DNA of 32,000 nucleotides from Marinicrinis sediminis (GTDB lineage: Bacteria > Bacillota > Bacilli > Paenibacillales > KCTC-33676): NCBI RefSeq assembly GCF_042685085.1, contig NZ_JBHUMM010000023.1, positions 33,157 through 65,156 of the forward strand, read 5' to 3'. Below the pieces are notes generated by a model, which saw only the letters and a program-made list of their open reading frames with translations, made no database searches and was not told the DNA's origin. Shown one piece after another: positions 16,291 through 31,968 of the stretch (position 1 is its first letter; each line of letters starts with the position of its first letter). The position numbers and the translations under genes are program-made.

Positions 16291-16298
16291 ATTTTTGA

Positions 16299-17939: not shown

Positions 17940-17966
17940 GAAATTCCTTCCTTTAGTAAAGTCCAG

Positions 17967-18017: not shown

Positions 18018-18080
18018 TGTTGGGCTAATCGTTCAAAATGAAACCATCTATATCGGTACCTCTCATTTAGAGGATGATGA

Positions 18081-18278: not shown

Positions 18279-18332
18279 GTAATACATTCCCTTCGTCTTC
18301 AAATACGTGAGTTTTGGGTATCCCACAATTTG

Positions 18333-18361
18333 AATATATCATTGGTCCTGTTTGATGTCAA
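18333..18361 (-). promoter_or_regulatory. sigma-A promoter of the csp gene (consensus -35 TTGACA, 17 nt, extended -10 TGaTATATT)
   Basis: The minus strand reads TTGACA-TCAAACAGGACCAATGA-TATATT, leaving a 5' UTR of about 50 nt. Confidence 0.55.
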
Positions 18362-18449
18362 TGTCCTTTCCACGCCGATCAAGCCCAAAATTATCTGAAA
18401 ATTCGACTATTTACATCTTCTTCTCAAAATGAAAGCTTGTTTTCATTGG

Positions 18450-18546
18450 TTATGCACAGATTTATCCACATTATCCACAGGTAGTTGCATCGGATTTGCA
18501 CACAATGCGGGGGTCAGTTGTCCACATCAGGTTAACTTTATCCACA
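18450..18546 (+). promoter_or_regulatory. cluster of five co-oriented DnaA boxes
   Basis: The boxes are TTATGCACA (18450-18458), TTATCCACA (18462-18470), TTATCCACA (18471-18479, directly abutting), TTGTCCACA (18518-18526) and TTATCCACA (18538-18546). Four fit TTATNCACA exactly and one has a single mismatch. Confidence 0.7.
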
Positions 18547-18576
18547 AAAAAAGACCCCTCTGTAGATAAAGGGGTC
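18546..18576 (-). terminator. rho-independent terminator ending the glycan operon
   Basis: The stem GACCCCT / AGGGGTC with a 10-nt loop is followed by TTTTTTT on the minus strand. It lies 4 nt after the aminotransferase stop. Confidence 0.7.
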
Positions 18577-18580
18577 ATGT

Positions 18581-19777
18581 CTACTTGTGATACACGAACG
18601 CTACTTTTTTAACGGCTTCAATGACATCATTTACATCCTCAGCTGTCATACCCGGGAAGATTGGAAGGGTCAGAGCGTGCTGATACCACTCTTCCGCTAC
18701 TGGACACAGTCCCCTTGCATAACCGAGTTGCTCGTAATAAGGATGCCAATACACTGGAATATAATGGACATGTACACCGATATTTTCTGCTCGCAACGCC
18801 TCGAAAAATTCTCTCCTGGAAGCTCGGAATGCCTCCGGATTCAATTGCAATGAATACAAGTGCCATGCCGATTCTGTTTCCGTCAACTGCTTGGGCACAA
18901 TGAGTCCGTCTATCTGTTCAAATGCAGTCGTATAAGCCTCGGCGATAGCTCTGCGTTGCTGAGTGAAACTGAACAGCTTTCTGAGCTGCGAGCGGCCGAG
19001 AGAAGCTTGGATATCGGTCATCCGATAATTGTAGCCCAGTTCCTGCATTTCATAGTACCAGGCACCTTCCCGGTCTATCACAGTTGCATCGCGAACGATA
19101 CCGTGAGAGCGAAAGCTTCTCAGCTGTGAAGCCACGCTTTCATCGTGAGTCGTAATCACACCGCCCTCTCCAGCGGTCACTGGCTTGACAGGATGGAAGC
19201 TGAACATCGCCATGTTGGAAGATGACCCAATTGGTTGCCCCTGATGAGACGCTCCCAAAGCATGTGCAGCATCCTCAATCAACTGCAATCCATATCTGTT
19301 TGTCAGAGCACGCAAGGCTGTGAGGTCACAGGGCTGCCCCGTAAAGTGTACCGCCATAATCGCTTTTGTGCGAGATGTAATAGCCTGCTCAACGCTAGAC
19401 GGGTCCAGATTATAGGTTTGTGGATCAATATCTGCGAATACCGGTCGGCCTCCACAATAAAGGACACAATTCGAACTGGCTGCAAAGGTAATGGGACTCG
19501 TAATGACTTCATCACCCTCTGTGATCCCCGCAACATGGCATGCGGCATGCAGCGCAGCCGTGCCGTTCGCAAAAGCGATGGCATCGCCAGCTCCCACTTC
19601 CTCGGCGACTGCTTGTTCAAATGCTTCAATTGCAGGTCCTTGTGTGAGATAGGGACTGCGCAATGTATCTACCACATGTGCGATGTCCTCCTCATCCAGC
19701 CATTGGCGTCCATATGGAAGCATGGTGCTTCGTATCGGGACACCGCCATGAATCGCCAGCGTGTTCAGATTTGTCAT
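18581..19777 (-). CDS. pseC: DegT/DnrJ/EryC1/StrS-family PLP aminotransferase, PseC-like (UDP-4-keto-6-deoxy-HexNAc 4-aminotransferase)
   Basis: The ORF has LPYGRQWLDEEDIAHVVDTLRSPYLTQGPAIEAFEQAV, FANGTAALHAA and FSFHPVKPVTAGEGG (PLP lysine). The ATG at 19777 (MTNLNTL) lies 9 nt after AGAGGA. The GTG at 19822 and the internal MLPYGRQ are alternative starts. Confidence 0.8.
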   Translation of the reverse strand: MTNLNTLAIHGGVPIRSTMLPYGRQWLDEEDIAHVVDTLRSPYLTQGPAIEAFEQAVAEEVGAGDAIAFANGTAALHAACHVAGITEGDEVITSPITFAASSNCVLYCGGRPVFADIDPQTYNLDPSSVEQAITSRTKAIMAVHFTGQPCDLTALRALTNRYGLQLIEDAAHALGASHQGQPIGSSSNMAMFSFHPVKPVTAGEGGVITTHDESVASQLRSFRSHGIVRDATVIDREGAWYYEMQELGYNYRMTDIQASLGRSQLRKLFSFTQQRRAIAEAYTTAFEQIDGLIVPKQLTETESAWHLYSLQLNPEAFRASRREFFEALRAENIGVHVHYIPVYWHPYYEQLGYARGLCPVAEEWYQHALTLPIFPGMTAEDVNDVIEAVKKVAFVYHK

Positions 19778-19814
19778 GACCAGACATCCTCTCTGTGATC
19801 CGTTCATTCCTGTT

Positions 19815-20762
19815 TCACGCACGGGTGAAACGTCTGATCCATTCTTCGGTTCTGCGAATCCCTTCGGTTAGAGGGGTTGTCGCTTCCCACCCCAGCAATT
19901 GCTTCGCTTTCTCCGGATTACAGAGCAGCTTCTGGATCTCGCTCTGTGGATGAATATGAGGAACATGCTTAATCTCGGAATGATCCTGTGCGATCAGTTG
20001 AGCGAGTTCGTTAATGGCTATGTCCTGTCCCGTTCCTGCATGTACGACCTGCCCATTTACGCGATCCGAGTATCCCGCTGAGACAACAAAGTCGGCGCAA
20101 TCTTCGACATAGAGCAGATCACGGGTCTGAGTGCCATCTCCATATATTTGTATGTCTGCACCTAACAGCTTCTGATGAACGAAAATAGAGACTACGCCAC
20201 CCTCACCGCTTGTCTTCTGATAAGGTCCATACGTATTAAAAGGTCTTACGACGACTGCAGGTAGGCCGTACGCATGAAAATAGGACAAAGTCATGCTTTC
20301 AGCGGCAATCTTGGCACCTGCGTATGGCGAAGCAGGCTTTACCGGATGTGCTTCTGTAAGGCCAGAAGCCTCGGTACAACGTTCATATACCATACAGGTA
20401 CTCATTAGAACCATTTTGGTATGATGCTTTCTACAGGCTTCCAGCACGCAGAACGTTCCGACTGTATCATTCTGAAACGTGGTCTTTGGGTCATCAATCG
20501 AATCCTGTACGTTAATCGAAGCACCTAAATGGTAGCAAATTTCAAATGAATGTTTCGCAAACAGCTCATCAATCAAAGCCTGATTTTTGATATCCCCGAT
20601 TACAACAGATTGAAGGAACGGATCTGAGCGGAATTCCTCCAAGTTTTTTTCACTGCCATTCGATAAATCATCGATGACAGATACTGCATGTCCGTCTTCC
20701 AGGAGTTTCTTCACGACCCATCTGCCGATAAAACCGGCTCCACCTGTCACTAATACACGCAT
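19815..20762 (-). CDS. NAD-dependent epimerase/dehydratase (extended SDR, GalE/RmlB-like)
   Basis: The ORF has MRVLVTGGAGFIGRWVVKKLL (GxxGxxG), a YAGAK catalytic YxxxK and YGDGTQTRDLLYVEDCA. The ATG at 20762 lies 6 nt after GGAAAGGGGA. Confidence 0.85.
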   Translation of the reverse strand: MRVLVTGGAGFIGRWVVKKLLEDGHAVSVIDDLSNGSEKNLEEFRSDPFLQSVVIGDIKNQALIDELFAKHSFEICYHLGASINVQDSIDDPKTTFQNDTVGTFCVLEACRKHHTKMVLMSTCMVYERCTEASGLTEAHPVKPASPYAGAKIAAESMTLSYFHAYGLPAVVVRPFNTYGPYQKTSGEGGVVSIFVHQKLLGADIQIYGDGTQTRDLLYVEDCADFVVSAGYSDRVNGQVVHAGTGQDIAINELAQLIAQDHSEIKHVPHIHPQSEIQKLLCNPEKAKQLLGWEATTPLTEGIRRTEEWIRRFTRA

Positions 20763-20814
20763 AGACAATCCCCTTTCCTGGTAATCAGTATAACGCGTCC
20801 GAAAGGCCTGTGCA

Positions 20815-21618
20815 CTAGAACGCTTTTACTAGCGGAGGTTGCTGGACAGGCAATTCGCCATCTAAAAATCGATCTACCATATCATTTTGAAAGGTGTTGT
20901 AGATCACTCGCAAATGTTGCGGGTGCCAATCGGCAGAGGTAAAAAGCTTGCCAGCCGATTTCTGTGGGATCGCAGATATCACATGTCCCGATCTGATTCG
21001 TTGCACAATTTCAATCAAATCCGCTACGACCTGGACCACGGCACGACATGCCACATCATGAATCCCGTCCCCGTACCTCAGATCCGGAACGGAATGATGA
21101 ATGATATCTCCCCCATCCAGCTTGTGGGTCAACTGATGGATCGTCATTCCTGCCCAGTTGGGTTTCAGGAAGTAGAATGGCCAAAACAGCGTCGTATTGC
21201 CCCTGTACCACGGAGATAATCCGCCATGAATATTCCATGAAATCGGGGGGAGCTTTGCCAGCAAGGGAGCGTGAAGCATATGTACGCCATAAGTAAGTAC
21301 CATGTCGGGTTGCTGCTCCGTCACCCAGTTTTGAACGGCTTCCGTATTGAGTGTTTCAGGACGACAGCGAAAAACTGACAGAGCATGCCCTTCTTCGTCA
21401 ATGGATGGATCGGGAAACCAGGCCTTTTCTGTTTCTTCTCGCTCCTGAAAATGACGGATAAAATTTTGACGATCCTGCTCATGTAAATCATTTGGCGGCT
21501 GTGGAAGCATCGCCTCTCTTTCTTCCACTAACAGCGCATGCAGCAAACCGGCAGAAATCAGCTGATTGGCCACATATCGGTGACGAGGATGGGAACCTGT
21601 CATCAAAAGTACCTTCAT
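20815..21618 (-). CDS. formyltransferase-family protein (Fmt/PurN-like N-terminal domain)
   Basis: The 267-aa ORF has DMVLTYGVHMLHAPLL...WNIHGGLSPWYRGNTTLFWP...HQLTHKLDGGDII. This corresponds to the N..H..(S/G)L(L/S)P.YRG...D catalytic layout of N10-formyl-THF transferases. Its ATGA overlaps the stop of the upstream gene. Confidence 0.7.
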   Translation of the reverse strand: MKVLLMTGSHPRHRYVANQLISAGLLHALLVEEREAMLPQPPNDLHEQDRQNFIRHFQEREETEKAWFPDPSIDEEGHALSVFRCRPETLNTEAVQNWVTEQQPDMVLTYGVHMLHAPLLAKLPPISWNIHGGLSPWYRGNTTLFWPFYFLKPNWAGMTIHQLTHKLDGGDIIHHSVPDLRYGDGIHDVACRAVVQVVADLIEIVQRIRSGHVISAIPQKSAGKLFTSADWHPQHLRVIYNTFQNDMVDRFLDGELPVQQPPLVKAF

Positions 21619-23021
21619 ATCTCAAATGGCTCCATTCGATTGGAATAGGGGCCTTTTAACAGACCCTTCTCGATCAGCAAGTGGATAACCGGTTGCAGAT
21701 CATAGATGTTACCATGACTCTGGCACTTTTCAGCTATTTCCTGCAGGTTATGCTGTCCGTCCGCATAATTCAATATCGTCAATATACGATTTAGCTGCTT
21801 TCTTCCATCTACCAATTGATTGTTGGATTGCCTCAGTATTCCGTTTTGGTTCATATCCGGATACAAGCCATAACGGTCCAGCTTCACCTCGCCATAAGGA
21901 GATTGATTGACGTAATAACCATCCAGTTCCAGTCCCAGAAGAAGGTGCTCTATTTCGTCCGCACTCTTCACTAATGCGTCCATTGTCATTACTTCCTTCG
22001 TGTCTGCGGAGCTATGATATTCCGGAAAACTTGCATGCAGCATACGTGAAATTTGCCCTACTGGCAAGTTGAAACCAGGAGAGTTATATTGCCTTTCGTC
22101 AGATCCATAGTTTGGCGTAAACGGTCTCGTTCGATTTGGGGAGGCTTCAGAGGCAAACAAATGATGCCAGAGCAGGTCAAGTGGGGAATGACCCTGACGA
22201 GACTGCTTATAGCTTAATGGCTCTTGTCCGCCCAAACAGGTCAGGATCATTCCGGCATGCATCCTTGCTTTTAAACCTTTTCCAAACTGATGCAGATAGG
22301 CAATAGAGCCGATCGTCTCAGGTGCGAAAACAAATCGATACGTAAATCTCCGCTTTTGCCATCTGGACAGGCGTTGATACAGCATGGCCGCCGTAATAGG
22401 GCCGCTCAGTTCATTATTTGCCATGGATGGATGGCAAAGATAGGAGCTGATCAGAATTTCTTCCTCGCACTCCCCAGGAAGGATTGCATGTGCATAATTC
22501 ATTTCACCTTCCACGAGCTCACTATCGATATGGGCATGATAACGTCCTGGTTTTAATTGATCATAGATGTCCTGTGTAAGACAAAATCCCCATCTCTCTT
22601 TGTAATAAGACGTGACATAGGGGATAGAATTCGGAAGGACAGGGTTTGTATACAGATGGGATTTTAATTCATCCAAAGTAAAATATCCATCTACCGGAAT
22701 GCTATAGTTCAAAACATGCAGATTATGAGTGTCAAAGTCTGCAATGACTCGTCCTTGCGGATCGGTCAGAGTGGCTGATCGAATGCGCCATTCTTTCGGA
22801 ACCTCCCAGTCAAATAGACGGGTCCCGCTCGCAACCGAAAAATGCTCCAGTGGCATCCATTCCGATAAAATGTCCAGGGACTGTCTTAATCCAGGGCCCG
22901 TAATACTCCTGCAAATGGGGAAGAGACGATCAAATAATTGCTCGATCTGCCACCGTTCCTGCTGCTTGTGGGAAGACGAAGTCAGGTCAATTCGATCTTG
23001 TTCTATAGATGGCCTTTGCAT
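21615..23021 (-). CDS. aminopeptidase-like (M28-fold) domain protein of the DUF2172/DUF4910 type with a C-terminal winged-helix-like tail
   Basis: The 468-aa ORF has LFPICRSITGPGLRQSLDIL, WEVPKEW, SSYLCHPSMANNELSGP and FVFAPETIGSIAYL. This pattern is as I recall it for the COG4310 'polysaccharide biosynthesis protein with aminopeptidase-like domain' family. Confidence 0.65.
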   Translation of the reverse strand: MQRPSIEQDRIDLTSSSHKQQERWQIEQLFDRLFPICRSITGPGLRQSLDILSEWMPLEHFSVASGTRLFDWEVPKEWRIRSATLTDPQGRVIADFDTHNLHVLNYSIPVDGYFTLDELKSHLYTNPVLPNSIPYVTSYYKERWGFCLTQDIYDQLKPGRYHAHIDSELVEGEMNYAHAILPGECEEEILISSYLCHPSMANNELSGPITAAMLYQRLSRWQKRRFTYRFVFAPETIGSIAYLHQFGKGLKARMHAGMILTCLGGQEPLSYKQSRQGHSPLDLLWHHLFASEASPNRTRPFTPNYGSDERQYNSPGFNLPVGQISRMLHASFPEYHSSADTKEVMTMDALVKSADEIEHLLLGLELDGYYVNQSPYGEVKLDRYGLYPDMNQNGILRQSNNQLVDGRKQLNRILTILNYADGQHNLQEIAEKCQSHGNIYDLQPVIHLLIEKGLLKGPYSNRMEPFEI

Positions 23022-23066
23022 GGTCTACCCCCATTTCATTAACTTGATATCTGGTAAGCTGAAAAC

Positions 23067-24125
23067 TCAGGTGTCAAATAAATCCCACGATACTGGTGTG
23101 CCTTTCGATAAACGCTTAGGTACTCGTCTGCCCAGTAGCTCTTCCATATATTTTGGAGCCAGACCCGCTCCCGGGCGGATGGCTCTCACGTGATCCTTGC
23201 TCAGTATTTCACCGGCTTCAATGTCTTGCACGATATATAAGGACCTGCGATGCTTAAGGGCATTCTGCTCCGCTTCAGTAGGCCCGTAATAAATATTTCC
23301 CTTGCTCTGCCATGCTCGCTTCGTCTCCTGAACAAGCGCGCTCATCTCCGAAGGCTCCATGGAAAACTCGGCATCTACCCCGCCATCAGCACGAGAAAGG
23401 GTGAAGTGCTTCTCAATGACGGTGGCACCCAGCATCACACTGCCGACTGCCGTACCGATGCCCATTGTATGGTCAGACAATCCCACCTGACATTGAAAGA
23501 GTGCTTTCATATGAGGGAGGGTCATCAAATTCGAATGTTCAGGTGATGCCGGATAGGTGCTCGTACATTTCAGCAATACAAATTGGGTACAGCCCTGTTC
23601 ACGCAGTGCCCGGACCGTTTCGTCCAGTTCCGCTACTGTCGCCATGCCGGTTGAAACAATAACTGGCTTTCCGGTTTGTGCCACTTTGCGGATTAAAGGC
23701 AAGTCTGTATTCTCGAACGAGGCAATTTTATAGCATGGCACATCAAGGGATTCCAGGAAATCGACCGCGGTATCATCAAATGGGGTACTAAAAGGCACGA
23801 TTCCCAGCTCTAGACACCGATTGAAAATGGGCTCATGCCACTCCCAAGGCGTGTACGCTCTCTGGTACAGATTGTACAGCGATTCACCTTTCCACAAATT
23901 CTGAGGATCCTCAATAAAAAAATCACCCTCATTGATATCCAATGTCATAGTGTCGGCTGTATAGGTCTGGAGCTTCAATGCGTGTACACCAGCAGCGGCT
24001 GCAGCCTCCACGATTTTCAGTGCCCGCTCCAATGAATGGTTGTGATTGCCCGACATTTCTGCAATAATAAACGGCTCATGGCTCTCGCCCACTTTATGGT
24101 CACCAATGGTTATGGTACGATTCAT
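23067..24125 (-). CDS. pseI: pseudaminic acid synthase (NeuB family with C-terminal SAF domain)
   Basis: The ORF has PFIIAEMSGNHNHSLERALKIVEAAAAAGVHALKLQTYTADTMTL, LWKGESLYNLYQRAYTPWEWH, YKIASFE, LLKCTSTYPA, GLSDHT and IEKHFTL. It is collinear with Campylobacter PseI as I recall it. Confidence 0.88.
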   Translation of the reverse strand: MNRTITIGDHKVGESHEPFIIAEMSGNHNHSLERALKIVEAAAAAGVHALKLQTYTADTMTLDINEGDFFIEDPQNLWKGESLYNLYQRAYTPWEWHEPIFNRCLELGIVPFSTPFDDTAVDFLESLDVPCYKIASFENTDLPLIRKVAQTGKPVIVSTGMATVAELDETVRALREQGCTQFVLLKCTSTYPASPEHSNLMTLPHMKALFQCQVGLSDHTMGIGTAVGSVMLGATVIEKHFTLSRADGGVDAEFSMEPSEMSALVQETKRAWQSKGNIYYGPTEAEQNALKHRRSLYIVQDIEAGEILSKDHVRAIRPGAGLAPKYMEELLGRRVPKRLSKGTPVSWDLFDT

Positions 24126-25219
24126 GGCTCCAACCCTCCGCTCAATATTTCTGTCACTTTATTCTGAGTACGTACGTGGTTACTATCCATCATATCCATA
24201 CCCTTGTTCCGCATGTCCTCTCTCAACTCTCGATCCGTCATCAATCGATGCAGAGATGCAGTCACATCTTCAGAAGTCACAGACGCATGCCATCCCAGAG
24301 AGTGGATACCCCCCTGCTTCGCTGCAGCTTGTACGGATTCCACTTGATTGTCGGCCGTTACGGTAATCAGCGAAGGGAGTCCAAGATAACAGCGTTCCCA
24401 CATCGCCACTCCTCCTGCGCCCAATGCCAGATGAGAGCTTGCCATGAAACGAGCCAATTGATTCGTTTGACAGATGTAGCTGGTGTTTAGCATCAATTTG
24501 CATCTGGTTTCGATCGTGCCTCTTGCTGGATTAGACGTCCCTGTCACCACTTGAACATGGAGCCGTGGTTGATCCTGGGCGACTTTCTCCACCGCATCCA
24601 GTGCTTTCATGGTTTCTCCAGTTGGATCACTGCCTCCGTAAAACACCAGCAAACGAAACGCATCTGAATCTGATCGCGTGACATCATGAAGTTTCAATTC
24701 TTTTCTCGCTTCGAAAAATTCCTTCCTTAATAACACAAAGCCGGGGCCCAGCAACTGCATACAATGTTCAGGTACAAGTGCCTGGTAACGGTGATCGGCA
24801 TTCTGATGCAAGTTCTGATCCAAAAGCAAGTCACAATCATGCTTCCGGTTAGCCAGATCATCGATTACCATGATTTTTTTCGTGAACTTTCGCATCTCAA
24901 GTTCCCATACGATATCCAGCTGATAATGATCCACGACCAACCAGTCCCATTGATTGAAGCTGTCCGGCCTCCGTCTTTCCTGCATCAGGCGAGCGGTATG
25001 GACTGCATCAGATAGTGGATCAGAGACGGCTGGCATACTGGCGACTTCAAAGCCTTGTGATTCGAGCCAATCCATCATATGACCTGGCACACGCTGACAA
25101 ATAAATAGCACCCTGGCCTCCGGCATTTTGCGAAGCACATCTTGTGCAAGTGCAGCACATCGCATCACATGTCCTGAACCTATATTTACAGAAGCATCCG
25201 TACGTATAGCCATCTGCAT
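24122..25219 (-). CDS. pseG: PseG-like UDP-2,4-diacetamido-2,4,6-trideoxy-hexose hydrolase (GT-B fold, SpsG-like)
   Basis: The ORF begins MQMAIRTDASVNIGSGHVMRCAALAQ (hallmark RxDxxxxIGxGHxMRC) and has a later GGSDPTG motif. The ATG at 25219 is 1 nt after the upstream stop, and the 3' ATGA overlaps pseI. Confidence 0.75.
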   Translation of the reverse strand: MQMAIRTDASVNIGSGHVMRCAALAQDVLRKMPEARVLFICQRVPGHMMDWLESQGFEVASMPAVSDPLSDAVHTARLMQERRRPDSFNQWDWLVVDHYQLDIVWELEMRKFTKKIMVIDDLANRKHDCDLLLDQNLHQNADHRYQALVPEHCMQLLGPGFVLLRKEFFEARKELKLHDVTRSDSDAFRLLVFYGGSDPTGETMKALDAVEKVAQDQPRLHVQVVTGTSNPARGTIETRCKLMLNTSYICQTNQLARFMASSHLALGAGGVAMWERCYLGLPSLITVTADNQVESVQAAAKQGGIHSLGWHASVTSEDVTASLHRLMTDRELREDMRNKGMDMMDSNHVRTQNKVTEILSGGLEP

Positions 25220-25220
25220 G

Positions 25221-25955
25221 TCAACAGACCGGCTTTTGCTGAATATGGGCATTCAAGCGAGCGACCTCAGGATGTTCCAGCAAATATTGTACAATCTGAG
25301 CAGAAGGAACTTGAACAATATCCGGAATATGTTGAGCCAACGTCTGGCACAATTGATAATCTTCCACGGTATCGACGGTCATTCTCAGATGAGGATGATG
25401 AAGAACGTCCGGCACATGCACGTATGCGAGTTTGAACTGCTCTGGATGCTCATAGGCATAGTAGGTGACGTGTTCACGATGACGGGCTTCCGTCCCCCGT
25501 TCATGTACGGCGAGCAATGCCGAATAACGCATCACTTCCACAGCCAACCCTCGGGGCAGATCGCGATCAAGTGAGATGAGATCCGCGTCTGTATGTGCGA
25601 GTACGCCCATCATTTTGTTGGCTAGCTGAACATCAAGAAATGGACAATCTGCGGTTACCCGTATCACCCAATTTGGTTGATACAACTCCGCACACGCCGC
25701 ATATCTGGACAACACGTCTTCTTCCGAGCCACGAAAACAGGCCACCTGATTCATCTGGCACCACGACGATATCGCATCATCGGCAGGCAATACAGAAGTG
25801 GCCAAGATAACTGCGTCCCCATTTATTTGTCTGCATCGCTGAACCACATGGTCAAGGATGCTGGTTTGACCAAGGGACTTTAGTACTTTGCCCGGCAATC
25901 TTGAAGAGCCCATTCTGGCTTGTATAATAATCAACTTATCTACGCTCTTTTCCAT
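25221..25955 (-). CDS. nonulosonate cytidylyltransferase, SpsF/PseF-like (CTP_transf_3 family)
   Basis: The ORF begins MEKSVDKLIIIQARMGSSRLPGKVLKSLG (P-loop-like RxGSxRLPGK) and contains RVTADCP. The ATG at 25955 lies behind GGAGAAAGGGTGAGGG. The track start at 26021 overlaps the LuxC-like gene. Confidence 0.8.
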   Translation of the reverse strand: MEKSVDKLIIIQARMGSSRLPGKVLKSLGQTSILDHVVQRCRQINGDAVILATSVLPADDAISSWCQMNQVACFRGSEEDVLSRYAACAELYQPNWVIRVTADCPFLDVQLANKMMGVLAHTDADLISLDRDLPRGLAVEVMRYSALLAVHERGTEARHREHVTYYAYEHPEQFKLAYVHVPDVLHHPHLRMTVDTVEDYQLCQTLAQHIPDIVQVPSAQIVQYLLEHPEVARLNAHIQQKPVC

Positions 25956-25965
25956 AAGCAAGCCC

Positions 25966-27237
25966 TCACCCTTTCTCCACTGTGATCCAGCGAACAAATC
26001 GGTCCAGTACCAGCATGCCATCCCATGGCAATTGATAATGATGGGCTTTGCCGACGGGTACGATCCGACTCACTCCTTGAAAACGGACACTGTCCAGCAA
26101 TCGCAGCATATCCTCTTCCTCCAGTTTGTGAGAAATTGTCTGTATGGAAGGAGGCAGAACGTGTCCAATTTCACTCATGTCCTTACTGGGATATACATGT
26201 AAAATATGCAAGCCCTCACCTGTTAGCGGCTCTAACCGGTCGTGGAAATGCAACGTCCATTCCGCTCCTTCGGAGACAAGCAACCGCTCCCCCTTCAGCC
26301 ATGCTCGCGTCCGATAATGAACCACCTTCATCGTTTCCCCGGCATCGAAAGGCTGGGACACATGGCTGCGTAACGGTTTCTGTAAGGCTTCAGCCAGTCG
26401 CCCCCCAGCATCCAGAGAAACTTGTTTGTCTCCTTTTACAATCAAGGCATGCGGAGACGAGCACGCCAACTGATTAAATAACAGCATATCTTGAGCAATC
26501 CTAGTCCAGTCTGCTGTATCCATTTGTGCAGGATCGATTACCGCACAGCTGTATTTGGGTCCGAATATCAATGTTTCACTCTCTGGCTTTCCCGGCAGAG
26601 AGGATACAGCATGCACAGCTTCCCTGCCTCCCCAAGCTACACGCACGTCGCATTGAGCGGCTACCTGTTGATTCCATATCGTATCCTTTCCAGGATAGGA
26701 GACGACCATAACAGACTCTGACATGACTTGTCCGGCTTGTCCGCACTTCGAAAGCTCAGCAAGAAAAGGGCTGATATAATCGATTTGTCTGCTGCTTAAT
26801 TTCACAATCGAGTGATTTTTCGTGAGTATTGCCTGGATAACAGAGATAAGACTTAACAGAGGGACATTTCCAGCCATCCAGTGACCGATCATGCCTCTGG
26901 GAACGGCGGTAACGCTCATCCCCGTCAAGTCCACCACCTGATCAAGCACCTGCTCGTGACGCAGACCTCGTTTCAAGAAACTTCGCAAAGAATCCGGGTG
27001 GATAAAGGTTAATAAATAGGCCAGGCCCACATGGCGAAGTTGACGATGGACGGGATGTTTGGGAGATGCCAAGCGCTGATAAAGCGTGTAGAAAGCTTCG
27101 ACCATGTCGTTGAACTTCAGGTGCCGCACTTGACGCGGTTGCTGTCCAAAATGCTGAAGCCGCTGCTTGAATTCCTCATCGGACAGGGGTTGTTCCTGCT
27201 GCGTTCGCCCCTCTATAAAATGAATGGCATTTACCAT
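25966..27237 (-). CDS. LuxC-family acyl-CoA/acyl-protein reductase (aldehyde-forming)
   Basis: The 423-aa ORF has GHWMAGNVPLLSLISVIQAILTKN and FNQLACSSPHALIV (the position of the acylated Cys in LuxC). It overlaps the upstream gene at ATGGTAA. Confidence 0.78.
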   Translation of the reverse strand: MVNAIHFIEGRTQQEQPLSDEEFKQRLQHFGQQPRQVRHLKFNDMVEAFYTLYQRLASPKHPVHRQLRHVGLAYLLTFIHPDSLRSFLKRGLRHEQVLDQVVDLTGMSVTAVPRGMIGHWMAGNVPLLSLISVIQAILTKNHSIVKLSSRQIDYISPFLAELSKCGQAGQVMSESVMVVSYPGKDTIWNQQVAAQCDVRVAWGGREAVHAVSSLPGKPESETLIFGPKYSCAVIDPAQMDTADWTRIAQDMLLFNQLACSSPHALIVKGDKQVSLDAGGRLAEALQKPLRSHVSQPFDAGETMKVVHYRTRAWLKGERLLVSEGAEWTLHFHDRLEPLTGEGLHILHVYPSKDMSEIGHVLPPSIQTISHKLEEEDMLRLLDSVRFQGVSRIVPVGKAHHYQLPWDGMLVLDRFVRWITVEKG

Positions 27238-28046
27238 CCCAGCGTCACCCCTTCCACGGTTTCAAACGGCCATACAGGTGGAGGTTCCCATGCTTCAGCC
27301 TGTTTGGACAGCGGCTTATACAAGGGAGTCCACATCTCGGTTTGTGCCGGATTCTTTTCTGTCATTTTTCCACTGATTCCCTCACGGGTTCTGGCCATAT
27401 AATGAAAGGTCTTCTCATTGAGCTGCACTGCTTCTGCCATGAAATCTTCAACGGGAGAAAGCAGCCATTGACTCTCTGTGAACCAATAGTGCCTTTCCTG
27501 GCCTTTCATATAATGATATCTTCTTGGAGAAGCGAGGAACCGCCAAGCTTCATAAATAGAAGGATAGTCTGAGTTTGAACAGGAGGTTTGCTGGTCCGCC
27601 AGGCTTGGAGATAGGCTTAGCCTCTCCTCTCCTCTGGCATTTCCGTTCGTTTGTGCCGCCTGATAAGTTCCGAAAGGCTGCCATCCCAGTAATCGCTTCA
27701 CTGGTCCCATTTTGTTATTTGCAAACGCCATTACGGCATCCAGTTTGGCTTCATCTCGTGCCCAATGCAAAGCGTGCTCCAACATGTCAGCTATAAATGG
27801 AAGGGTCGTCCTTTCCGGATGAAAGATCCCGTCCACAGCGAAGGCTACCCTTGCTTTCGGCTTGAAAGGCATTTCAATCATGGCATAGTGAGCATAGAGG
27901 ACCCCTTCTTCTTCGGCCACCCAGCTCATTTGGACCGGCGCCTGTTTCTTCCATTGAAACAAGGATGGATCAAACTGAAGTCCCCGTGCCTCATATAAGG
28001 TCCGAACTCCCTCTATATCATTTGGCATGTAGCTTCGTATCTGCAC
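27231..28046 (-). CDS. hypothetical protein, N-terminal half GNAT-like acyltransferase fold
   Basis: The 271-aa ORF has a GTG start 7 nt after GGAGGAG, located inside the 3' end of the LuxE-like gene (29-nt overlap). Residues 1-130 (IRSYMPNDIEGVRTLY...WVAEEEGVLYAHYAMIEMPF...FAVDGIFHPE...AFANNKMGPVKRLLGW) show GNAT-like beta/alpha spacing, but I see no clean Q/RxxGxG/A motif. I cannot assign the C-terminal half. Confidence 0.5.
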   Translation of the reverse strand: MQIRSYMPNDIEGVRTLYEARGLQFDPSLFQWKKQAPVQMSWVAEEEGVLYAHYAMIEMPFKPKARVAFAVDGIFHPERTTLPFIADMLEHALHWARDEAKLDAVMAFANNKMGPVKRLLGWQPFGTYQAAQTNGNARGEERLSLSPSLADQQTSCSNSDYPSIYEAWRFLASPRRYHYMKGQERHYWFTESQWLLSPVEDFMAEAVQLNEKTFHYMARTREGISGKMTEKNPAQTEMWTPLYKPLSKQAEAWEPPPVWPFETVEGVTLGW

Positions 28047-29154
28047 CCATTATCTCCTCCGCATACACATCCCCGCATCCGCGTGCCTCAGCCTTTGGCG
28101 CCCGGCCTTTAAATCGGAATGCTTTTCCCTTCCTTCCACATGGGCACTCATCGGTCCCCACCCATTCCCCGAGATCATCGGTCAGTACCGAAAAGTTAGG
28201 GGAAGAAAGCGGCAGCAACGAAATGAGCTGAATGAGTCCCGTTTCCCCGACTGGCAATGGTTTCAATGTGTGAGGGGCCCTGATGATGACATCAGCAAAG
28301 TAAGGAACATGTTTATTTCCTGCTGAACAATCCGGATACACGACGCCCGTTTGTTCTACTAATCCATAGAAATCAATGACCTGAGAAGGTTCAATGCCCC
28401 AAAACTGAGAGATTTGCTGGTTAAATGTTTCTTTGTGCACACGCATATGCTCCAGGCGTTTCCAGCCTCCGCTATGAATCAGAAACGTTTGGGAATCAAA
28501 GCCCTTCTGCGCCTCATACAATGTCATCAACTGCTCATGGGCCTGATGAAGCAGATAGGTAAATCCATAGGCGATGAATTGTCCCGCTTCTCTGGCTGCT
28601 TGCAGAGCCTGCTCGAATCGCTCTGGATTGAGTCTCAGCTCACCGTGTATGTCATCCATAACAAAATGAAATTCCGATGCATAACCCATTAAGGACATGA
28701 TCGCAGCTCCTCGAGCGGACATTACCTGCTTGCCACGTGCAGTTTGCATGGTATCAAAGATAATATAAGGTCTGCGTTCCACGCCTATATGATCATTCCA
28801 AATGGCCTGCAACGATTGACGTTGTCTGGCAGAGGTTCTCTCATCGATGAAAACCTGTGAGGGAACACCTGAGGAAGTGCTGCTGGACTGTACCGTCTTC
28901 ATTTTCACATCTTTATTCGCAGCGGTTTTTAATTCAAATTCCTTAAAGATGGATGTCGGCAGAAAAGGAAGGTCCGTCAATGCTGCATATTGTCCGTCTC
29001 GGGCCTGAGCCTCTACCAAATGACGGTACGGTTTGCAATGCTGGACATGCCACTGAAGCAAATGCCGAAATTCCTTCAACAGATAGGTTTCTTTCTCGGC
29101 CTGTTCCATTTCGTAAGGCCTGACTTGTTCCATCAAGCAATCATGTATAGACAT
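28018..29154 (-). CDS. LuxE-family acyl-protein synthetase (adenylate-forming)
   Basis: The ORF is collinear with Photorhabdus/Vibrio LuxE as I recall it. Shared stretches are LLKEFRHLLQWHVQHCKPYRHL, LPFLPTSIFKEF, SSSTSSGVPSQV, LIHSGGWKRL, HVPYFADVIIRAPHTLKPLPVGETGLIQLISL and SVLTDDLG. TAAATG junction to the upstream Fe-ADH-like gene. Confidence 0.85.
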   Translation of the reverse strand: MSIHDCLMEQVRPYEMEQAEKETYLLKEFRHLLQWHVQHCKPYRHLVEAQARDGQYAALTDLPFLPTSIFKEFELKTAANKDVKMKTVQSSSTSSGVPSQVFIDERTSARQRQSLQAIWNDHIGVERRPYIIFDTMQTARGKQVMSARGAAIMSLMGYASEFHFVMDDIHGELRLNPERFEQALQAAREAGQFIAYGFTYLLHQAHEQLMTLYEAQKGFDSQTFLIHSGGWKRLEHMRVHKETFNQQISQFWGIEPSQVIDFYGLVEQTGVVYPDCSAGNKHVPYFADVIIRAPHTLKPLPVGETGLIQLISLLPLSSPNFSVLTDDLGEWVGTDECPCGRKGKAFRFKGRAPKAEARGCGDVYAEEIMGADTKLHAK

Positions 29155-30255
29155 TTATATCTGATCCTCTCCGGTAAACCACCATGTCTGCAGCCATGTG
29201 TCTAGCTCTTGTCTGGATATGTACGCAGCATTTGTACGGAAGCATGGGTCCAATTGAATACGCTTGAGCATCTCCTCGCGATTCATTTGCATCTGATCAA
29301 CAGGCCGAAAGGTTCCGACTGTCTGCTTGGTTTTTTCCTCCAGCCAGGCTATCCCCTCTATGGCATCCTCAAATCCACACGCCTGCCAAATGGAATGAAA
29401 TTTCTCCTCCGCCTTCGTCATATGAAAGCGTGTCACGCTTGCGATGATTCGACCACATGCTTCTCCATGCCATTGCTTTCGATGTTCAACCTGATGCGCA
29501 AGGGCATGAATCAATCCCGCAGAAGCCACACTTTGCGCCTTTCCAGCCAGCACACTATTCCACTGTAAGTCCGAACTTGCCGATTGCTTACTTTCCGGAG
29601 CAGGTTCCAATCTTGTGCTGGTCAGTTTATCCACGTGTTCTTTGCAATTTCTGATAGCATCCAGTGACAATCGCTTGCTGGCCGGCGTAGCCAGAGGAGA
29701 CACATAGGACTCCAGTGCATGGGTGAATACATCCCATATCCCGTTCCACAATACCCGATCAGGAGCAGTTGCCACGATCTGCTCATCGAGCAGCACTTCA
29801 TTTGGCAGTAAAGAAGCATGATGCAGCGGAACTTTTTGACCATCAATGGTCAGTACAGCCGTCTCACTGACTTCGCTGCCGCTTCCTGCCGTACTTGGAA
29901 TGGCGGTTAACCGATACGGATGACTTTCATTATATGTGATCCATTTTCGCTTCCTTAACTGCGCCTTGCCCGCTTCATCCAAACGACCCAGTCTAACGGC
30001 CAGCTTGGCTAAATCAAGCACCTTGCCGCCGCCAAATGCTATGATCCATTTGCTTCGATTCTGGTACACCCATTCCTGAAGGGCTACCAAGGTGTCCCAA
30101 TCTGCAGAATCAACAAGAAAACAGGATCGTTTAGCTAATACTGGATATTGATGCTGTAAGGAAGGCGAGGTAATCCATATCGCTTCTTCTACTCTCATCA
30201 TTTCCACCACGACGTCTTTCACCTGGCGGATACGAGGCCATTGAATCATCGACAT
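29155..30255 (-). CDS. iron-containing (group III) alcohol dehydrogenase / DHQS-like oxidoreductase
   Basis: The ORF has WIIAFGGGKVLDLAKLAV (GGGSxxDxAK-type NAD site), PSTAGSGSEVS, DVFTHALESY and LIHALAHQVEH...HGEA (metal His cluster). The ATG at 30255 lies 9 nt after GGAGAGGAG and 4 nt after the ligase stop. The track start at 30369 is over-extended. Confidence 0.75.
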   Translation of the reverse strand: MSMIQWPRIRQVKDVVVEMMRVEEAIWITSPSLQHQYPVLAKRSCFLVDSADWDTLVALQEWVYQNRSKWIIAFGGGKVLDLAKLAVRLGRLDEAGKAQLRKRKWITYNESHPYRLTAIPSTAGSGSEVSETAVLTIDGQKVPLHHASLLPNEVLLDEQIVATAPDRVLWNGIWDVFTHALESYVSPLATPASKRLSLDAIRNCKEHVDKLTSTRLEPAPESKQSASSDLQWNSVLAGKAQSVASAGLIHALAHQVEHRKQWHGEACGRIIASVTRFHMTKAEEKFHSIWQACGFEDAIEGIAWLEEKTKQTVGTFRPVDQMQMNREEMLKRIQLDPCFRTNAAYISRQELDTWLQTWWFTGEDQI

Positions 30256-30259
30256 TTCT

Positions 30260-31720
30260 TTATTCTCCTCTCCATCGACTTCGAGCTTCGAGGCGTTTCG
30301 GTTTACCGCTGTCGGTAAGGGGGATGGCATCCCATGCTTGTATGGTTTTCGGAATTTTATATATTTCAAGCTGCTGTTTACAGTGTTTTTTCATTTCTAC
30401 TTCCAGCTTTGCTGTCCAGATTACGCCCTCTTTTAGGACAACTGCGGATACGACTTTCTCGTGTGTCATGTTGTCCGGGACAGCAAATACAATGCACGCC
30501 TGAATAAGAGGATGCATAAGCAGGACTTTCTCTACTTCCGCGGGTGCCACTTTTAAGCCATCTACGTTTATTTGCTCTTTCAATCTGCCGCTCACGTACA
30601 AGAAACCGTCTTCATCCATCCATCCAATATCCCCTGTCGCAAACCAACCATCTGAGAGAAAGCTGTCTGCATGATTCAGGTAGCCCATCATGAGATTGCG
30701 TCCGTTCACCTGTATTTCAGAGGTTGTCGCATCCAGTCGAACGGCAACTCCCTCGGGTGCCTGGCCTGCGCTCGACAGCTTGTCAGGAAAATCCCTGTAG
30801 GAGATATAGGTGGTTCGGCTCGCCTCTGTCAGACCGTAGTACATATAGATCCGGGTATGAGGCAATACCTCCAACAGCTCCTGTACAACTTCTTCCTCGA
30901 TCGGCGCGGTATTAATGATGATGTAGGACAAATGACGGCAGGTTTCTATAAATTCCTGTTTATACATAGACAGCAGCACTTTAATCAAGGCTGGTGTTGC
31001 AGGCATACCTGTGGCCCGCATGTTTTTAATCCGTTGAAGCATATGCGAGATATGTTGGGCAGATTCGTGGAGTATGATCTGCGCACCGAGCAACACATAG
31101 CTGTGAATGTGACCTAATCCAAACGAATGGGTCAGCCTTAACACGGTCAATTCCCGATCATCTCTGTTCATGCCAGACCACTCAATGATTCTCTCAGCTG
31201 TGAACAGGATGGAAGAATGGGAAAGCATCACCCCTTTAGGAGCTCCGGTTGTGCCACTGGTATACATAATTAGAGCGGGGTGATTCTGGTTGTCTCCCTC
31301 CTGAGTTGATGCATCTTCATCCCATGAAATATCCCTGTATACTTTATTGGAAGGAAAAACAGCTGTGGAGACTGCTGAATCTTCAACAAGTTGCTTTCTT
31401 GCGCTGTGCAAAATCAATTTGGGCTGCGCATCTGCCACGATTTGCACCAAAACGCGTGGTCGGCAATCGAGATCTACTGGAATCACGGTAAGACCTAAAC
31501 ACCAGCTTGCAAAATACGCAAGGAGATACTCCAACTCATTTCCAAAACATAACACTACCCTGTCTCCGCGTGACAAGCTAAATGTCTGTTTCAGATAGGT
31601 CGCTGCACGCCGCACTTCATCGCTGAACTGCCCATAGCTGATGTCTTCTCCCTCAAGCGCAATGAAAGGGGCATCCGGCTGATTCTGTGCCTGTTCCACC
31701 AGCTTGTGCCAAATGGTCAT
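30260..31720 (-). CDS. ANL-superfamily adenylate-forming ligase (acyl/aminoacyl-carrier-protein ligase type)
   Basis: The 486-aa ORF has IMYTSGTTGAPKGVMLSH (A3), YYGLTE (A5), WFATGDIG (A7), GRLKEQINVDGLKVAPAEVE (A8) and PLTDSGKPKR (A10 Lys). Its start overlaps the ACP stop (TAATG). Confidence 0.9.
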   Translation of the reverse strand: MTIWHKLVEQAQNQPDAPFIALEGEDISYGQFSDEVRRAATYLKQTFSLSRGDRVVLCFGNELEYLLAYFASWCLGLTVIPVDLDCRPRVLVQIVADAQPKLILHSARKQLVEDSAVSTAVFPSNKVYRDISWDEDASTQEGDNQNHPALIMYTSGTTGAPKGVMLSHSSILFTAERIIEWSGMNRDDRELTVLRLTHSFGLGHIHSYVLLGAQIILHESAQHISHMLQRIKNMRATGMPATPALIKVLLSMYKQEFIETCRHLSYIIINTAPIEEEVVQELLEVLPHTRIYMYYGLTEASRTTYISYRDFPDKLSSAGQAPEGVAVRLDATTSEIQVNGRNLMMGYLNHADSFLSDGWFATGDIGWMDEDGFLYVSGRLKEQINVDGLKVAPAEVEKVLLMHPLIQACIVFAVPDNMTHEKVVSAVVLKEGVIWTAKLEVEMKKHCKQQLEIYKIPKTIQAWDAIPLTDSGKPKRLEARSRWRGE

Positions 31721-31968
31721 TAGATCTCCACACCTTTGGAGCGTAGGTACGCTTTGATATCCCCAATAGTGTGTATGCGAGTCACTTCTTCTACACTCAT
31801 ATGATGATGAAAGGTCTGATGAAGTGCAACCGCCATGGAAACGGTGGCCAGACTATCCCAACCTTCAATTTCCTCGGGACCATTGTCGTCCTTGTATTCT
31901 TCTTCTTCCATTAGAAATATATCCATTAAAAGCTGCTTAAGCTGTTCATCGGCTGTCAACTTGTCCAT
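31720..31968 (-). CDS. acyl carrier protein (stand-alone, DltC-like size)
   Basis: The 82-aa ORF has IEGWDSLATVSMAVAL, the DSL phosphopantetheine-attachment serine at the start of helix 2. The SD AGGAGGAAAGG lies 5 nt upstream. Confidence 0.85.
   Translation of the reverse strand: MDKLTADEQLKQLLMDIFLMEEEEYKDDNGPEEIEGWDSLATVSMAVALHQTFHHHMSVEEVTRIHTIGDIKAYLRSKGVEI

Follow-up and report, generated by a model that had tools for sequence, protein, structure and literature searches.

The 32,000-nucleotide stretch of the Marinicrinis sediminis (Paenibacillaceae) genome analysed here (hereafter the window; contig NZ_JBHUMM010000023.1, positions 33,157 to 65,156) carries, at positions 25966-31968 of the minus strand, six consecutive genes for an acyl carrier protein (ACP), an adenylating ligase of the ANL type, an iron-type alcohol dehydrogenase (Fe-ADH), a LuxE-family protein, a GNAT-fold protein (named here P5) and a LuxC-family protein, followed by genes of pseudaminic acid (Pse) biosynthesis. 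By analogy, we give an even chance to the reading that these genes are the Paenibacillaceae version of the tetronate-type acyl cassette of Vibrio cholerae O1, plugged into a pseudaminic acid operon that probably belongs to a flagellin glycosylation island. The six genes would then probably make a small hydroxy-acid that ends up on a nine-carbon surface sugar. LuxE and P5 sequences 100% identical to those of the window are recorded for M. sediminis. From the gene content, order and coupling, the catalytic residues, the homology to the Vibrio protein WbeN and the recurrent association with amino-sugar genes, we infer all the catalytic steps of the pathway proposed below.

All the genes of the block are located on the minus strand. 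Thirteen of them occupy positions 18581-31968 (-), in the order of transcription ACP, ANL ligase, Fe-ADH, LuxE, P5, LuxC, cytidylyltransferase, PseG, PseI, a DUF4910 protein, a formyltransferase-like protein, a short-chain dehydrogenase/reductase (SDR) and PseC. The successive junctions from the ACP gene to PseI measure -1, +4, 0, -29, -7, +10, +1 and -4 nt, the stop of P5 overlapping the start of LuxC by 7 nt. Six consecutive coupled genes had been described at this place in a first-pass annotation, and the junctions between them (-29 to +4 nt) confirm the coupling. No strong terminator was found inside 18581-31968. The sole convincing terminator on the minus strand of the block is an intrinsic one at 18576-18553 (-), with a 9-bp stem (5 G-C pairs) and a run of seven T, which lies 5 nt past the PseC stop and closes the block. 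Since the junctions are tight and a single terminator follows PseC, the ACP-to-LuxC genes make up, as far as the window extends, the promoter-proximal end of an operon-like block of 13 genes. The physical wiring of the cassette into a nonulosonate operon, also part of that annotation, is thus real, the six genes forming a coupled block with those of the cytidylyltransferase, PseG, PseI, SDR and PseC.

The assignments of the ACP, the ANL ligase, the Fe-ADH, LuxE and LuxC hold by their Pfam families together with their motifs or cysteines. The stand-alone ACP (31720-31968, -; 82 aa) matches PF00550 (PP-binding) with 22.9 bits, against a cut-off of 20.8, and carries Ser39 in a WDSL motif; the ACP models of NCBIfam match it below their cut-offs. 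The ANL ligase (30260-31720, -; 486 aa), counterpart of the Vibrio protein WbeL, shows the AMP-binding (206 bits) and AMP-binding_C (60 bits) domains, and its core motifs TSGTTGAPKG, YGLTE, TGD, GRLKE and SGKPKR are intact. It reaches no NCBIfam equivalog cut-off: the best match, a long-chain fatty-acid-CoA ligase subfamily, scores 272 bits against a cut-off of 476, and TIGR01733 scores 173 bits, well under its cut-off of 317. The closest solved structures include an adenylation domain of a nonribosomal peptide synthetase (NRPS), an oxalate-CoA ligase, a feruloyl-CoA synthetase and MenE. Reading the substrate of the ligase from its solved relatives or from NCBIfam was tried and given up, because neither discriminates, all the NCBIfam matches being below cut-off. 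The group III Fe-ADH (29155-30255, -; 366 aa), counterpart of WbeM, matches Fe-ADH with 59 bits and ADH_Fe_C with 54 bits and keeps the glycine-rich and Asp/His motifs (GGGKVLD, WDVFTHALE and HALAHQVEH...WHGE). Its start is most likely the ATG at 30255 and not the TTG at 30369, since the former fits the junction and the homologues of the relatives are 359-361 aa long.

The LuxE-family acyl-protein synthetase (28018-29154, -; 378 aa) matches PF04443 with 209 bits and the LuxC-family acyl-thioester reductase (25966-27237, -; 423 aa) matches PF05893 with 202 bits, so that profile searches confirmed both proteins at the Pfam level. In alignments with structure 7xc6, Cys360 of LuxE (in RGCGD) and Cys259 of LuxC (in LACSSP) fall on the cysteines that carry the acyl group in the Photobacterium LuxE and LuxC chains. 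Neither protein is at the level of the true Lux equivalogs: LuxE scores 86 bits with NF052244 (cut-off 550) and LuxC 96 bits with NF052251 (cut-off 750). Genes of luciferase (luxA, luxB) or of LuxD-type families were not found among the large open reading frames (ORFs) of the window, all of which were assigned elsewhere; their absence had been correctly noted before. Judged from the conserved residues, the window LuxE and LuxC probably keep the Lux relay, from adenylate to a first and then a second cysteine thioester and on to the aldehyde.

The closest described counterpart is found in V. cholerae O1, whose wbeK-L-M-N-O genes (rfbKLMNO) have been assigned to the 3-deoxy-L-glycero-tetronate (2,4-dihydroxybutanoyl) amide of perosamine (PMC12208996, PMC3441752, PMC9915646). 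The O1 antigen consists of perosamine with tetronate as N-acyl group, and its formation requires wbeL (PMC3441752). In wbeL, wbeM and wbeN mutants the O1 antigen or the O1-dependent phage sensitivity is lost (PMC3441752, PMC9915646); the wbeM mutation abolishes O1-dependent phage infection (PMC9915646). WbeK is a carrier protein (PMC12208996). The tetronate pathway has been a sequence-based proposal since 1995, genetic and bioinformatic in nature, and is not known to have been reconstituted.

A V. cholerae O1 wbe locus for direct comparison (L089) came from a metagenome collection. It was found by a search with an O1-rfb PCR primer. Both O1-rfb primer sites lie 192 bp apart in it, and together with a gene for RfbT (683 bits) and ORFs that measure exactly 1125 and 2478 nt they identify the locus by sequence as that of O1. 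Its gene order is ANL ligase (WbeL, cut at the locus start), Fe-ADH (WbeM), a fusion of LuxE (residues 1-375) and LuxC (residues 423-818) (WbeN) and a hexapeptide acyltransferase (WbeO); WbeK is cut off. Over 365 aa, the window LuxE shares 36% identity with the N-terminal half of WbeN (221 bits, E 2e-69), and over 371 aa the window LuxC shares 31% with its C-terminal half (184 bits, E 1e-55). These scores are about three times those obtained against the bioluminescence proteins (74 bits for LuxE against 7xc6_E, 78 bits for LuxC against 7xc6_A). The ligase is 28.5% identical to the WbeL fragment over 452 aa (160 bits) and the Fe-ADH is 29% identical to WbeM over 215 aa (88 bits).

The genes that follow LuxC encode most of a pseudaminic acid pathway. 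PseG, a UDP-sugar hydrolase (24122-25219, -), scores 269 bits with TIGR03590 (cut-off 153.55). The pseudaminic acid synthase PseI (23067-24125, -), with NeuB and SAF domains, scores 487 bits with TIGR03586 (cut-off 340), and the aminotransferase PseC (18581-19777, -), which makes the 4-amino sugar, 487 bits with TIGR03588 (cut-off 423.5). No aminotransferase other than PseC was found in the island. The CTP_transf_3 cytidylyltransferase (25221-25955, -; PF02348, 102 bits) is PseF-like at the Pfam level only and has no PseF equivalog match in NCBIfam; homologues 50-58% identical to it occupy the same position in the four relatives described below. The place of PseB is taken by an SDR of the sugar 4,6-dehydratase/epimerase type (19815-20768, -), RmlB/LegB-like, which matches GDP_Man_Dehyd with 206 bits and Polysacc_synt_2 with only 58 bits, and which stays below the cut-offs of the LegB (177 against 475 bits) and RmlB (176 against 365 bits) models. 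It is the only dehydratase of the island, and its homologues in the relatives are 67-68% identical. The window contains no PseH; just 32 nt of it precede the ACP gene, too few to inform on a PseH farther upstream.

The order ACP, ANL ligase, Fe-ADH, LuxE, P5, LuxC, cytidylyltransferase, PseG, PseI, SDR and PseC is kept in four relatives, namely Paenibacillus vini (L001), Paenibacillus sp. MSJ-34 (L002), P. mellifer (L003) and a Bacillales metagenome-assembled genome (MAG; L004). Their ACP homologues, at the same position, are 73-74% identical to that of the window. An equivalog-grade PseH (TIGR03585, 118 bits against a cut-off of 93) is encoded upstream of the ACP gene, directly adjoining it in L002-L004 and three genes away in L001. 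Farther upstream there are genes for GT2 proteins with TPR repeats and for other glycosyltransferases. A gene with a FliB_C domain (flagellin lysine methylase-type) follows PseC in L001 and L002, and cold-shock, hpf and secA genes follow the island in two of the four relatives.

P5 (27231-28046, -; 271 aa, GTG start) is predicted to be a divergent two-lobed GNAT-fold acyltransferase. The protein itself has no Pfam or NCBIfam match at E<=0.01 and matches nothing among the PDB sequences, even at E=10; a word-index search over 5.8 billion proteins returned only P5. An exhaustive search of 1.84 billion cluster representatives gave 16 cluster representatives as relatives, and Acetyltransf_9 is matched by 8 of these 16 family members. 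The AlphaFold model, built on the alignment of the relatives, has a mean pLDDT of 75, exceeding 90 for residues 1-133; its C-terminal half is poor, with values below 50 at residues 136-161, 192-211 and 223-235. With Foldseek, more than 400 GNAT structures of the PDB are neighbours of the model at E<=1e-3, including Eis-like GNATs, FeeM and SpeG. Thus, the model neighbours and the transitive homology through the Acetyltransf_9 matches of the relatives support P5 being, as modelled, a GNAT-fold protein, and the 'GNAT-like' label of the first-pass annotation was right. Eis-type GNATs (3n7z, 2i00, 4my3) align with P5 over about 300 columns (TMq 0.54-0.57), which suggests the two-lobed architecture of the model. 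The second-best structural match is FeeM (2g0b), an N-acyl amino acid synthase 20-22% identical to P5, although the Foldseek E-values do not set it apart from ordinary acetyltransferases. In the alignment, the glycine-rich loop that binds the CoA phosphates (R/Q-x-x-G-x-G/A) is not evident after strand 4, where HPERTT is found.

P5-family genes were found in eight contexts (the window, L001-L004, L079, L084 and L085), always between LuxE and LuxC. P5 represents a tiny, previously unannotated GNAT family and a new element of this locus. At its C-terminus, the last eight residues, VEGVTLGW (27231-27254, -), are near-invariant in the close family, and the 130 residues that precede them are poorly conserved and poorly modelled; from the sequence, VEGVTLGW looks like a docking motif.

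The presence of two adenylating enzymes, two serial reductases, one carrier and one acyltransferase makes a dicarboxylic acid the simplest substrate. It would be a short one, with L-malate and succinate as the leading candidates, and each of its carboxylates would be activated by a separate adenylating enzyme. LuxE would adenylate one carboxylate, hold the thioester on Cys360 and hand it to Cys259 of LuxC, which would reduce it with NAD(P)H to an aldehyde, and the Fe-ADH would convert this into a primary alcohol. The ANL ligase would activate the other carboxylate and load it on Ser39 of the ACP; either branch may come first. The logic set out in the first-pass annotation, from carboxylate through adenylate, thioester and aldehyde to alcohol, fits the gene set. 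The donor formed would be an ω-hydroxyacyl-ACP, either 2,4-dihydroxybutanoyl-ACP from malate, which is the V. cholerae group, or 4-hydroxybutanoyl-ACP from succinate. The amide bond would then be made by a GNAT, for which P5 is the cassette's own candidate and the PseH adjoining the ACP gene in the relatives is the alternative. The fact that each version of the cassette carries one acyltransferase, of a different family in each, argues for P5 as the final transferase. The most economical acceptor would be the 4-amino group of the PseC product, UDP-4-amino-4,6-dideoxy-L-AltNAc, a group that ends up as N7 of pseudaminic acid in the established Pse pathway; some other amine of the glycan might be used instead. 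Completion of the sugar and its activation would fall to PseG, PseI and the cytidylyltransferase.

This route predicts a mass. With C4H6O3 (102.032 Da) in place of one acetyl group, Pse5Ac7Ac (316.127 Da) would have a computed mass of 376.148 Da. In Aeromonas AH-3, ACP, FabG, ligase, LuxE and LuxC genes lie beside pseH (PMC7874193), and a Pse derivative of 376.14 Da and an unexplained glycan moiety of 102 Da are reported for this strain. The former would fit a hydroxyacyl-Pse of 376.148 Da, an assignment that is made here and is not a published one.

The distribution of the cassette was surveyed by scanning two conserved LuxE peptides over one genome per species (GTDB), which gave at least 585 loci with relatives. 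A sample of 82 loci (the best 80 plus L001 and L002) was searched with the window proteins. An ANL ligase was found within 5 kb of LuxE in 79 of the 82 loci, LuxC within 3 kb in 76 and an ACP nearby in 66, the three occurring together near LuxE in 63. An Fe-ADH lay within 3 kb in 26 loci, and a DegT-type sugar aminotransferase (19 loci), PseI (6) and P5 (5) were found near LuxE less often. These co-occurrence counts define as the core a four-gene cassette (ACP, ligase, LuxE and LuxC), usually with a third reductase, either an Fe-ADH or a ketoreductase (KR)-type SDR. Regarding the co-occurrence of LuxE and LuxC with NeuB/PseI and an ACP, with which the first-pass annotation had been concerned, the cassette itself is widespread, but PseI accompanies it in only the six loci just mentioned.

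The cassette is found in Pse islands in the Paenibacillaceae loci, in Bowmanella (L026) and in L066, with a PseH-like gene directly before it in the last two. In Gammaproteobacteria and Acidobacteriota it lies in polysaccharide-type clusters (Wzy_C, Bac_transf, NTP_transferase, PIG-L and FemAB-like Acetyltransf_6), and in Noviherbaspirillum in a flagellin-linked dTDP-amino-sugar cluster; in L072 a flagellin gene and a TPR-GT41 gene are beside it. FabG-type genes were found in L026, L066 and L083. The association with amino-sugar genes recurs independently in Vibrio, Aeromonas, Bowmanella, Noviherbaspirillum, Planctomycetota and Acidobacteriota, and the accompanying acyltransferase varies in family: the left-handed beta-helix (LbH) protein WbeO in Vibrio, an Acetyltransf_6/FemAB-like protein in a gammaproteobacterial group, a PseH-like protein in Bowmanella and L066, and P5 in the window. 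A Promethearchaeota MAG (L030, 8870-11074, +) encodes an Fe-ADH-LuxE fusion in a 734-aa ORF flanked by ligase and LuxC, indicating that the alcohol dehydrogenase (ADH) is functionally linked to LuxE. The cassette is also present in a Heimdallarchaeota MAG (L041), and hence in MAGs of Asgard archaea.

About 30 Clostridium loci (L025, L027-L029, L031-L037, L042-L047 and others) carry ACP, ANL ligase, LuxE and LuxC without sugar genes, and neither an Fe-ADH nor a KR is adjacent. Their cassettes are followed by genes for a sigma-54 enhancer-binding protein, an HpaB-family enzyme (4-hydroxybutyryl-CoA dehydratase family, AbfD-like), a protein of the acetyl-CoA hydrolase/transferase family and a NifU-like protein. 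This context hints that the same unit has a catabolic or fermentative use there, perhaps one centred on C4 hydroxy-acids. The cassette is therefore not specific for glycans but a unit for carboxylate reduction in general.

Two of the surveyed loci showed further features. In Bowmanella denitrificans (L026, 12306-15816, +), LuxC is followed directly by a cytidylyltransferase::phosphoenolpyruvate mutase fusion (401 bits), a phosphonopyruvate decarboxylase (447 bits) and a PsrA-like Fe-ADH, a 2-hydroxyethylphosphonate-type set that suggests a phosphonate decoration on the same glycan. This Fe-ADH, detected by tblastn near the cassette, was rejected as a cassette member, as it belongs to the adjacent phosphonate gene set. 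A gammaproteobacterial MAG (L083, identical to L018; 6221-18881) has a larger version of the cassette within a Wzy/Bac_transf polysaccharide cluster, with Acetyltransf_6, Fe-ADH, ANL ligase, LuxE, LuxC, ACP, a KR-type SDR, a 370-aa protein without a Pfam match, a second ANL ligase, an ornithine/diaminopimelate (Orn/DAP) decarboxylase and a PIG-L deacetylase. The conserved 370-aa protein recurs in at least 15 loci.

Similar gene sets have been described in flagellin glycosylation islands. In the group II flagellin islands of Aeromonas (98 strains), genes for an ACP, a 3-oxoacyl-ACP reductase, an AMP-dependent synthetase, luxE and luxC come directly after pseH (PMC7874193), and the enterobacterial flagellin islands (more than 70 strains) contain Acp, LuxE, LuxC, CaiC and FabG (PMC4875605); neither study assigns the genes a function. 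The proposal of the first-pass annotation that this is an undescribed sugar-tailoring pathway does not stand, since the same set and order occur in wbeK-L-M-N-O and LuxE, LuxC and ACP genes lie among the pse genes of Aeromonas (PMC7874193) and Enterobacteriaceae (PMC4875605). These earlier descriptions mean that the association is documented. The cassette is thus a known one, and new here are its Gram-positive host, the split LuxE and LuxC genes and the private GNAT, P5. The Shewanella flagellin-modification genes sfmABCDE, considered as a further instance of this cassette, were rejected, as the corresponding paper shows PseI-like, FabG-like, methyltransferase and ATP-grasp proteins.

In the window, the island is located directly upstream of csp-hpf-secA-prfB. 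In Bacillus subtilis, late flagellar genes precede hpf-secA-prfB. Because of this hpf-secA synteny, and of the FliB_C gene and the TPR-GT2 genes of the relatives, the setting is most likely a flagellin glycosylation island, as far as synteny and the genes of relatives can tell. A tblastn search with a B. subtilis flagellin as query detected no flagellin in the window or in the flanks of L001-L004, and found one only at the edge of L072. Neither a flagellin nor a Maf gene is present in the window or within 10 kb in L001-L004, and this last result favours a different target, in which the decorated nonulosonate would be placed on a spore-surface, S-layer or cell-wall glycan and not on flagellin. 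The Bacillus sps genes offer a precedent, as they provide a nonulosonate for the spore crust through a similar DegT/NeuB/CTP_transf_3/PseG-like set. Against such a target are the position upstream of csp-hpf-secA-prfB, the FliB_C gene after PseC and the TPR-containing GT2 genes upstream in the relatives. A target other than flagellin, which would be compatible with the same chemistry, is in our opinion unlikely, although it deserves to be kept in mind.

Other products of the cassette have to be weighed against the hydroxyacyl donor proposed here. One would be derived from a medium- or long-chain fatty acid, as in the Lux reductase, the outcome being a fatty aldehyde, alcohol or acyl group and a 'liposugar' on the flagellin glycan. 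The authors of the Aeromonas study propose a liposugar for the cassette (PMC7874193) and those of the enterobacterial study also suggest a lipid (PMC4875605); the Pfam families of LuxE and LuxC and the best NCBIfam match of the ligase, the long-chain fatty-acid-CoA ligase subfamily (272 against 476), agree with them. However, LuxE and LuxC are far under the true Lux cut-offs (86 against 550 and 96 against 750) and have a much nearer relative in WbeN, which belongs to a pathway leading to a C4 hydroxy-acid, and a monocarboxylic fatty acid would leave the second adenylating enzyme and the ADH unexplained. Moreover, the Aeromonas Pse derivative is just 60 Da above Pse5Ac7Ac, an increment incompatible with a fatty acyl group. 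A lipid product is hence very unlikely. The substrate might also be an amino acid, aspartate or glutamate (or an N-acyl derivative), whose side-chain carboxylate would be turned into an alcohol by LuxE, LuxC and the Fe-ADH to give a homoserine-like residue; P5 would acetylate the alpha-amine of the carrier-bound intermediate, and PseH or another enzyme would carry out the transfer. The invariable location of P5 between LuxE and LuxC, including L079, where no pse genes are visible in 12.8 kb, would fit an intrinsic step such as the N-acylation of an amino-acid-derived intermediate, and suits it better than a context-specific transfer. PseH adjoins the ACP gene in L002-L004, L026 and L066, and an NRPS amino-acid adenylation domain is among the best solved relatives of the ligase. 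On the other hand, the ligase scores 173 bits with TIGR01733 against a cut-off of 317, P5 is missing from 77 of the 82 loci, and the product of the V. cholerae module is a non-amino acid that needs no GNAT. We consider an amino acid substrate decidedly unlikely, if less easily dismissed than a lipid.

The aldehyde formed by LuxC could itself be the intended end product, to be used in a reductive amination, in an acetal or in a condensation with the sugar, with the Fe-ADH acting in the oxidative direction or as a safety valve. This would agree with the absence of an Fe-ADH within 3 kb in 56 of the 82 loci and with the Clostridium loci, where neither Fe-ADH nor KR is adjacent. It is highly improbable all the same, given that the Fe-ADH gene is translationally coupled between those of the ligase and LuxE, both here and in V. 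cholerae, and fused to that of LuxE in L030, that PseC is the sole aminotransferase of the island, that the V. cholerae product bears an alcohol and not an aldehyde-derived group, and that the wbeM mutation abolishes O1-dependent phage infection. We attach equally little weight to the idea that the cassette has come to lie in the operon by chance and produces a free small molecule that has nothing to do with the nonulosonate. The Clostridium loci, with the core cassette beside a sigma-54 activator, an HpaB-family enzyme and a CoA-transferase and no sugar genes, speak for it; they are outweighed by the translational coupling without an internal terminator, by an arrangement kept across five Paenibacillaceae/Bacillales genomes, and by the independent association with amino sugars in the six groups named above.

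Several observations weigh against the hydroxyacyl-nonulosonate reading itself. The specific link to V. cholerae is that of LuxE and LuxC, as the scores of the ligase and the Fe-ADH against WbeL and WbeM (160 and 88 bits) are on a par with those against generic solved members of their families (156 and 79 bits). The identity of the acyl group comes from analogy and one mass coincidence, and the Aeromonas cassette has FabG and not an Fe-ADH. As a PseH of equivalog grade is retained in the relatives, N7 may just carry an acetyl group, and the acceptor of P5 would then be undefined. A P5-type cassette exists without visible pse genes in the Elusimicrobia MAG L079 (12.8 kb available), and the Clostridium loci have the core cassette without sugar genes. 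The link to flagellin rests on the hpf-secA synteny and the FliB_C gene of the relatives, with no flagellin gene in the window. Finally, no biochemical study or reconstitution of the tetronate-type or flagellin-island cassettes was found in the papers searched, in accordance with the first-pass annotation, which knew of no biochemically defined role for such genes.

All these data can be joined in a broader proposal that we consider possible though doubtful. The cassette would be a general machine with two adenylating enzymes for two carboxylates, which converts a C4 dicarboxylic acid into an ω-hydroxyacyl-ACP, and LbH, PseH-like, FemAB-like or P5 acyltransferases would couple the acyl group to amino sugars across bacteria and some archaea. 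The Paenibacillaceae product would be Pse5Ac7(2,4-dihydroxybutanoyl), a residue of 376.148 Da and the same species as the 376.14 Da sugar of Aeromonas AH-3, and it might also explain the 102 Da moiety of AH-3. P5 would be a new GNAT subfamily that takes the acyl group from a carrier and not from CoA, in physical association with LuxE and LuxC.

Between PseI and the SDR, the island of the window has two accessory genes that overlap by 4 nt. One encodes an aminopeptidase-like protein with DUF4910, DUF2172 and HTH_47 matches (21615-23021, -; 279, 118 and 45 bits), and the other a formyltransferase-like protein of 267 aa (20815-21618, -; Formyl_trans_N, 35.5 bits), for which the NCBIfam formyltransferase models stay below their cut-offs. 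Among the relatives, only L004 has homologues of both (61% and 57% identity, respectively). The pair might de-N-acetylate and N-formylate the sugar, freeing or occupying one amine, which would bear on the site of the cassette acyl group.

Downstream of the block the window contains a cold-shock gene, a low-GC gene with Kelch and fn3 domains, hpf, secA, prfB, the gene of a YitT-family membrane protein and arginine biosynthesis genes. The Kelch/fn3 gene (16299-17744, -; 481 aa) encodes an N-terminal signal-like segment, five Kelch repeats and an fn3 domain, with sub-threshold matches to N-acetylneuraminate epimerase (NanM). It lies within a stretch of low GC (about 15000-19000; GC 0.37-0.43 against about 0.50 elsewhere) and occupies, beside the nonulosonate operon, the spot of the FliB_C gene of the relatives. 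The start of prfB (ORF 11565-12557, -) shows a canonical programmed +1 frameshift site of release factor 2 at about 12606, with AGGGGG followed by TCT CTT TGA C, after which the long ORF continues in the +1 frame. No RNA families were detected in the window by Rfam at the gathering threshold.

On flagella and surface polymers, nonulosonic acids act as antigens and influence motility, recognition by phages and the interaction with the host. Most of their diversity is created by N-acyl groups, and the enzymes for unusual acyl groups are largely unknown; in V. cholerae, the chief protective antigen is O1, which phages also use as a receptor. The cassette is a mobile building block with close LuxE relatives in at least 585 species-level genomes. 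Its compact Gram-positive version, with split genes, should be expressed and reconstituted more easily than the Vibrio fusion and, if reconstituted, would provide a function for thousands of proteins that are encoded outside lux operons and annotated as 'LuxE/PaaK-like' or 'acyl-CoA reductase'. The locus also gives a concrete mass prediction for Aeromonas flagellin, and its reconstitution could point to a natural enzymatic route to 2,4-dihydroxybutyrate or 4-hydroxybutyrate thioesters.

Compared with known systems, the window LuxE and LuxC share folds, families and both acyl-carrying cysteines with the Lux fatty acid reductase complex (LuxC-LuxE-LuxD, 7xc6); unlike that complex, the window lacks luxA, luxB and luxD, adds an ACP, a second adenylating enzyme, an ADH and a GNAT, and places them in a glycan locus. 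Within the Pse pathway (PseB, C, H, G, I and F), the PseC, PseG and PseI equivalogs are present, whereas a PseB-type inverting dehydratase is not. The Aeromonas and Enterobacteriaceae islands, likened here by their published descriptions, also have the cassette among pse genes, with a PseH-type GNAT adjoining the ACP gene (as in L026, L066 and L002-L004). Their cassettes differ in that a FabG-type SDR replaces the Fe-ADH and P5 is absent, and they belong to Gram-negative polar-flagellum islands; no SDR exists inside the window cassette, in which the Fe-ADH stands in the place of FabG. The V. cholerae O1 module shares with the window a carrier, ANL ligase, Fe-ADH, LuxE and LuxC in the same order, plus one acyltransferase, inside an amino-sugar cluster, and the proposed acceptor class, a nucleotide-linked 4-amino-4,6-dideoxyhexose, is common to both. 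WbeN and the window proteins have in common the C-terminal AE(A/V)RGCGDV motif of LuxE and the (L/F)AC(S/A)SPH motif of LuxC. In Vibrio, LuxE and LuxC are fused into the 825-aa WbeN, whose two Pfam domains are joined by about 47 residues, whereas in the window they are separate and split by P5. The Vibrio acyltransferase WbeO is a hexapeptide/LbH protein (Hexapep, 45 bits); the window encodes no LbH protein and has a GNAT instead. Finally, the sugar of Vibrio is GDP-perosamine in an O antigen, and that of the window is pseudaminic acid, probably on a glycoprotein.

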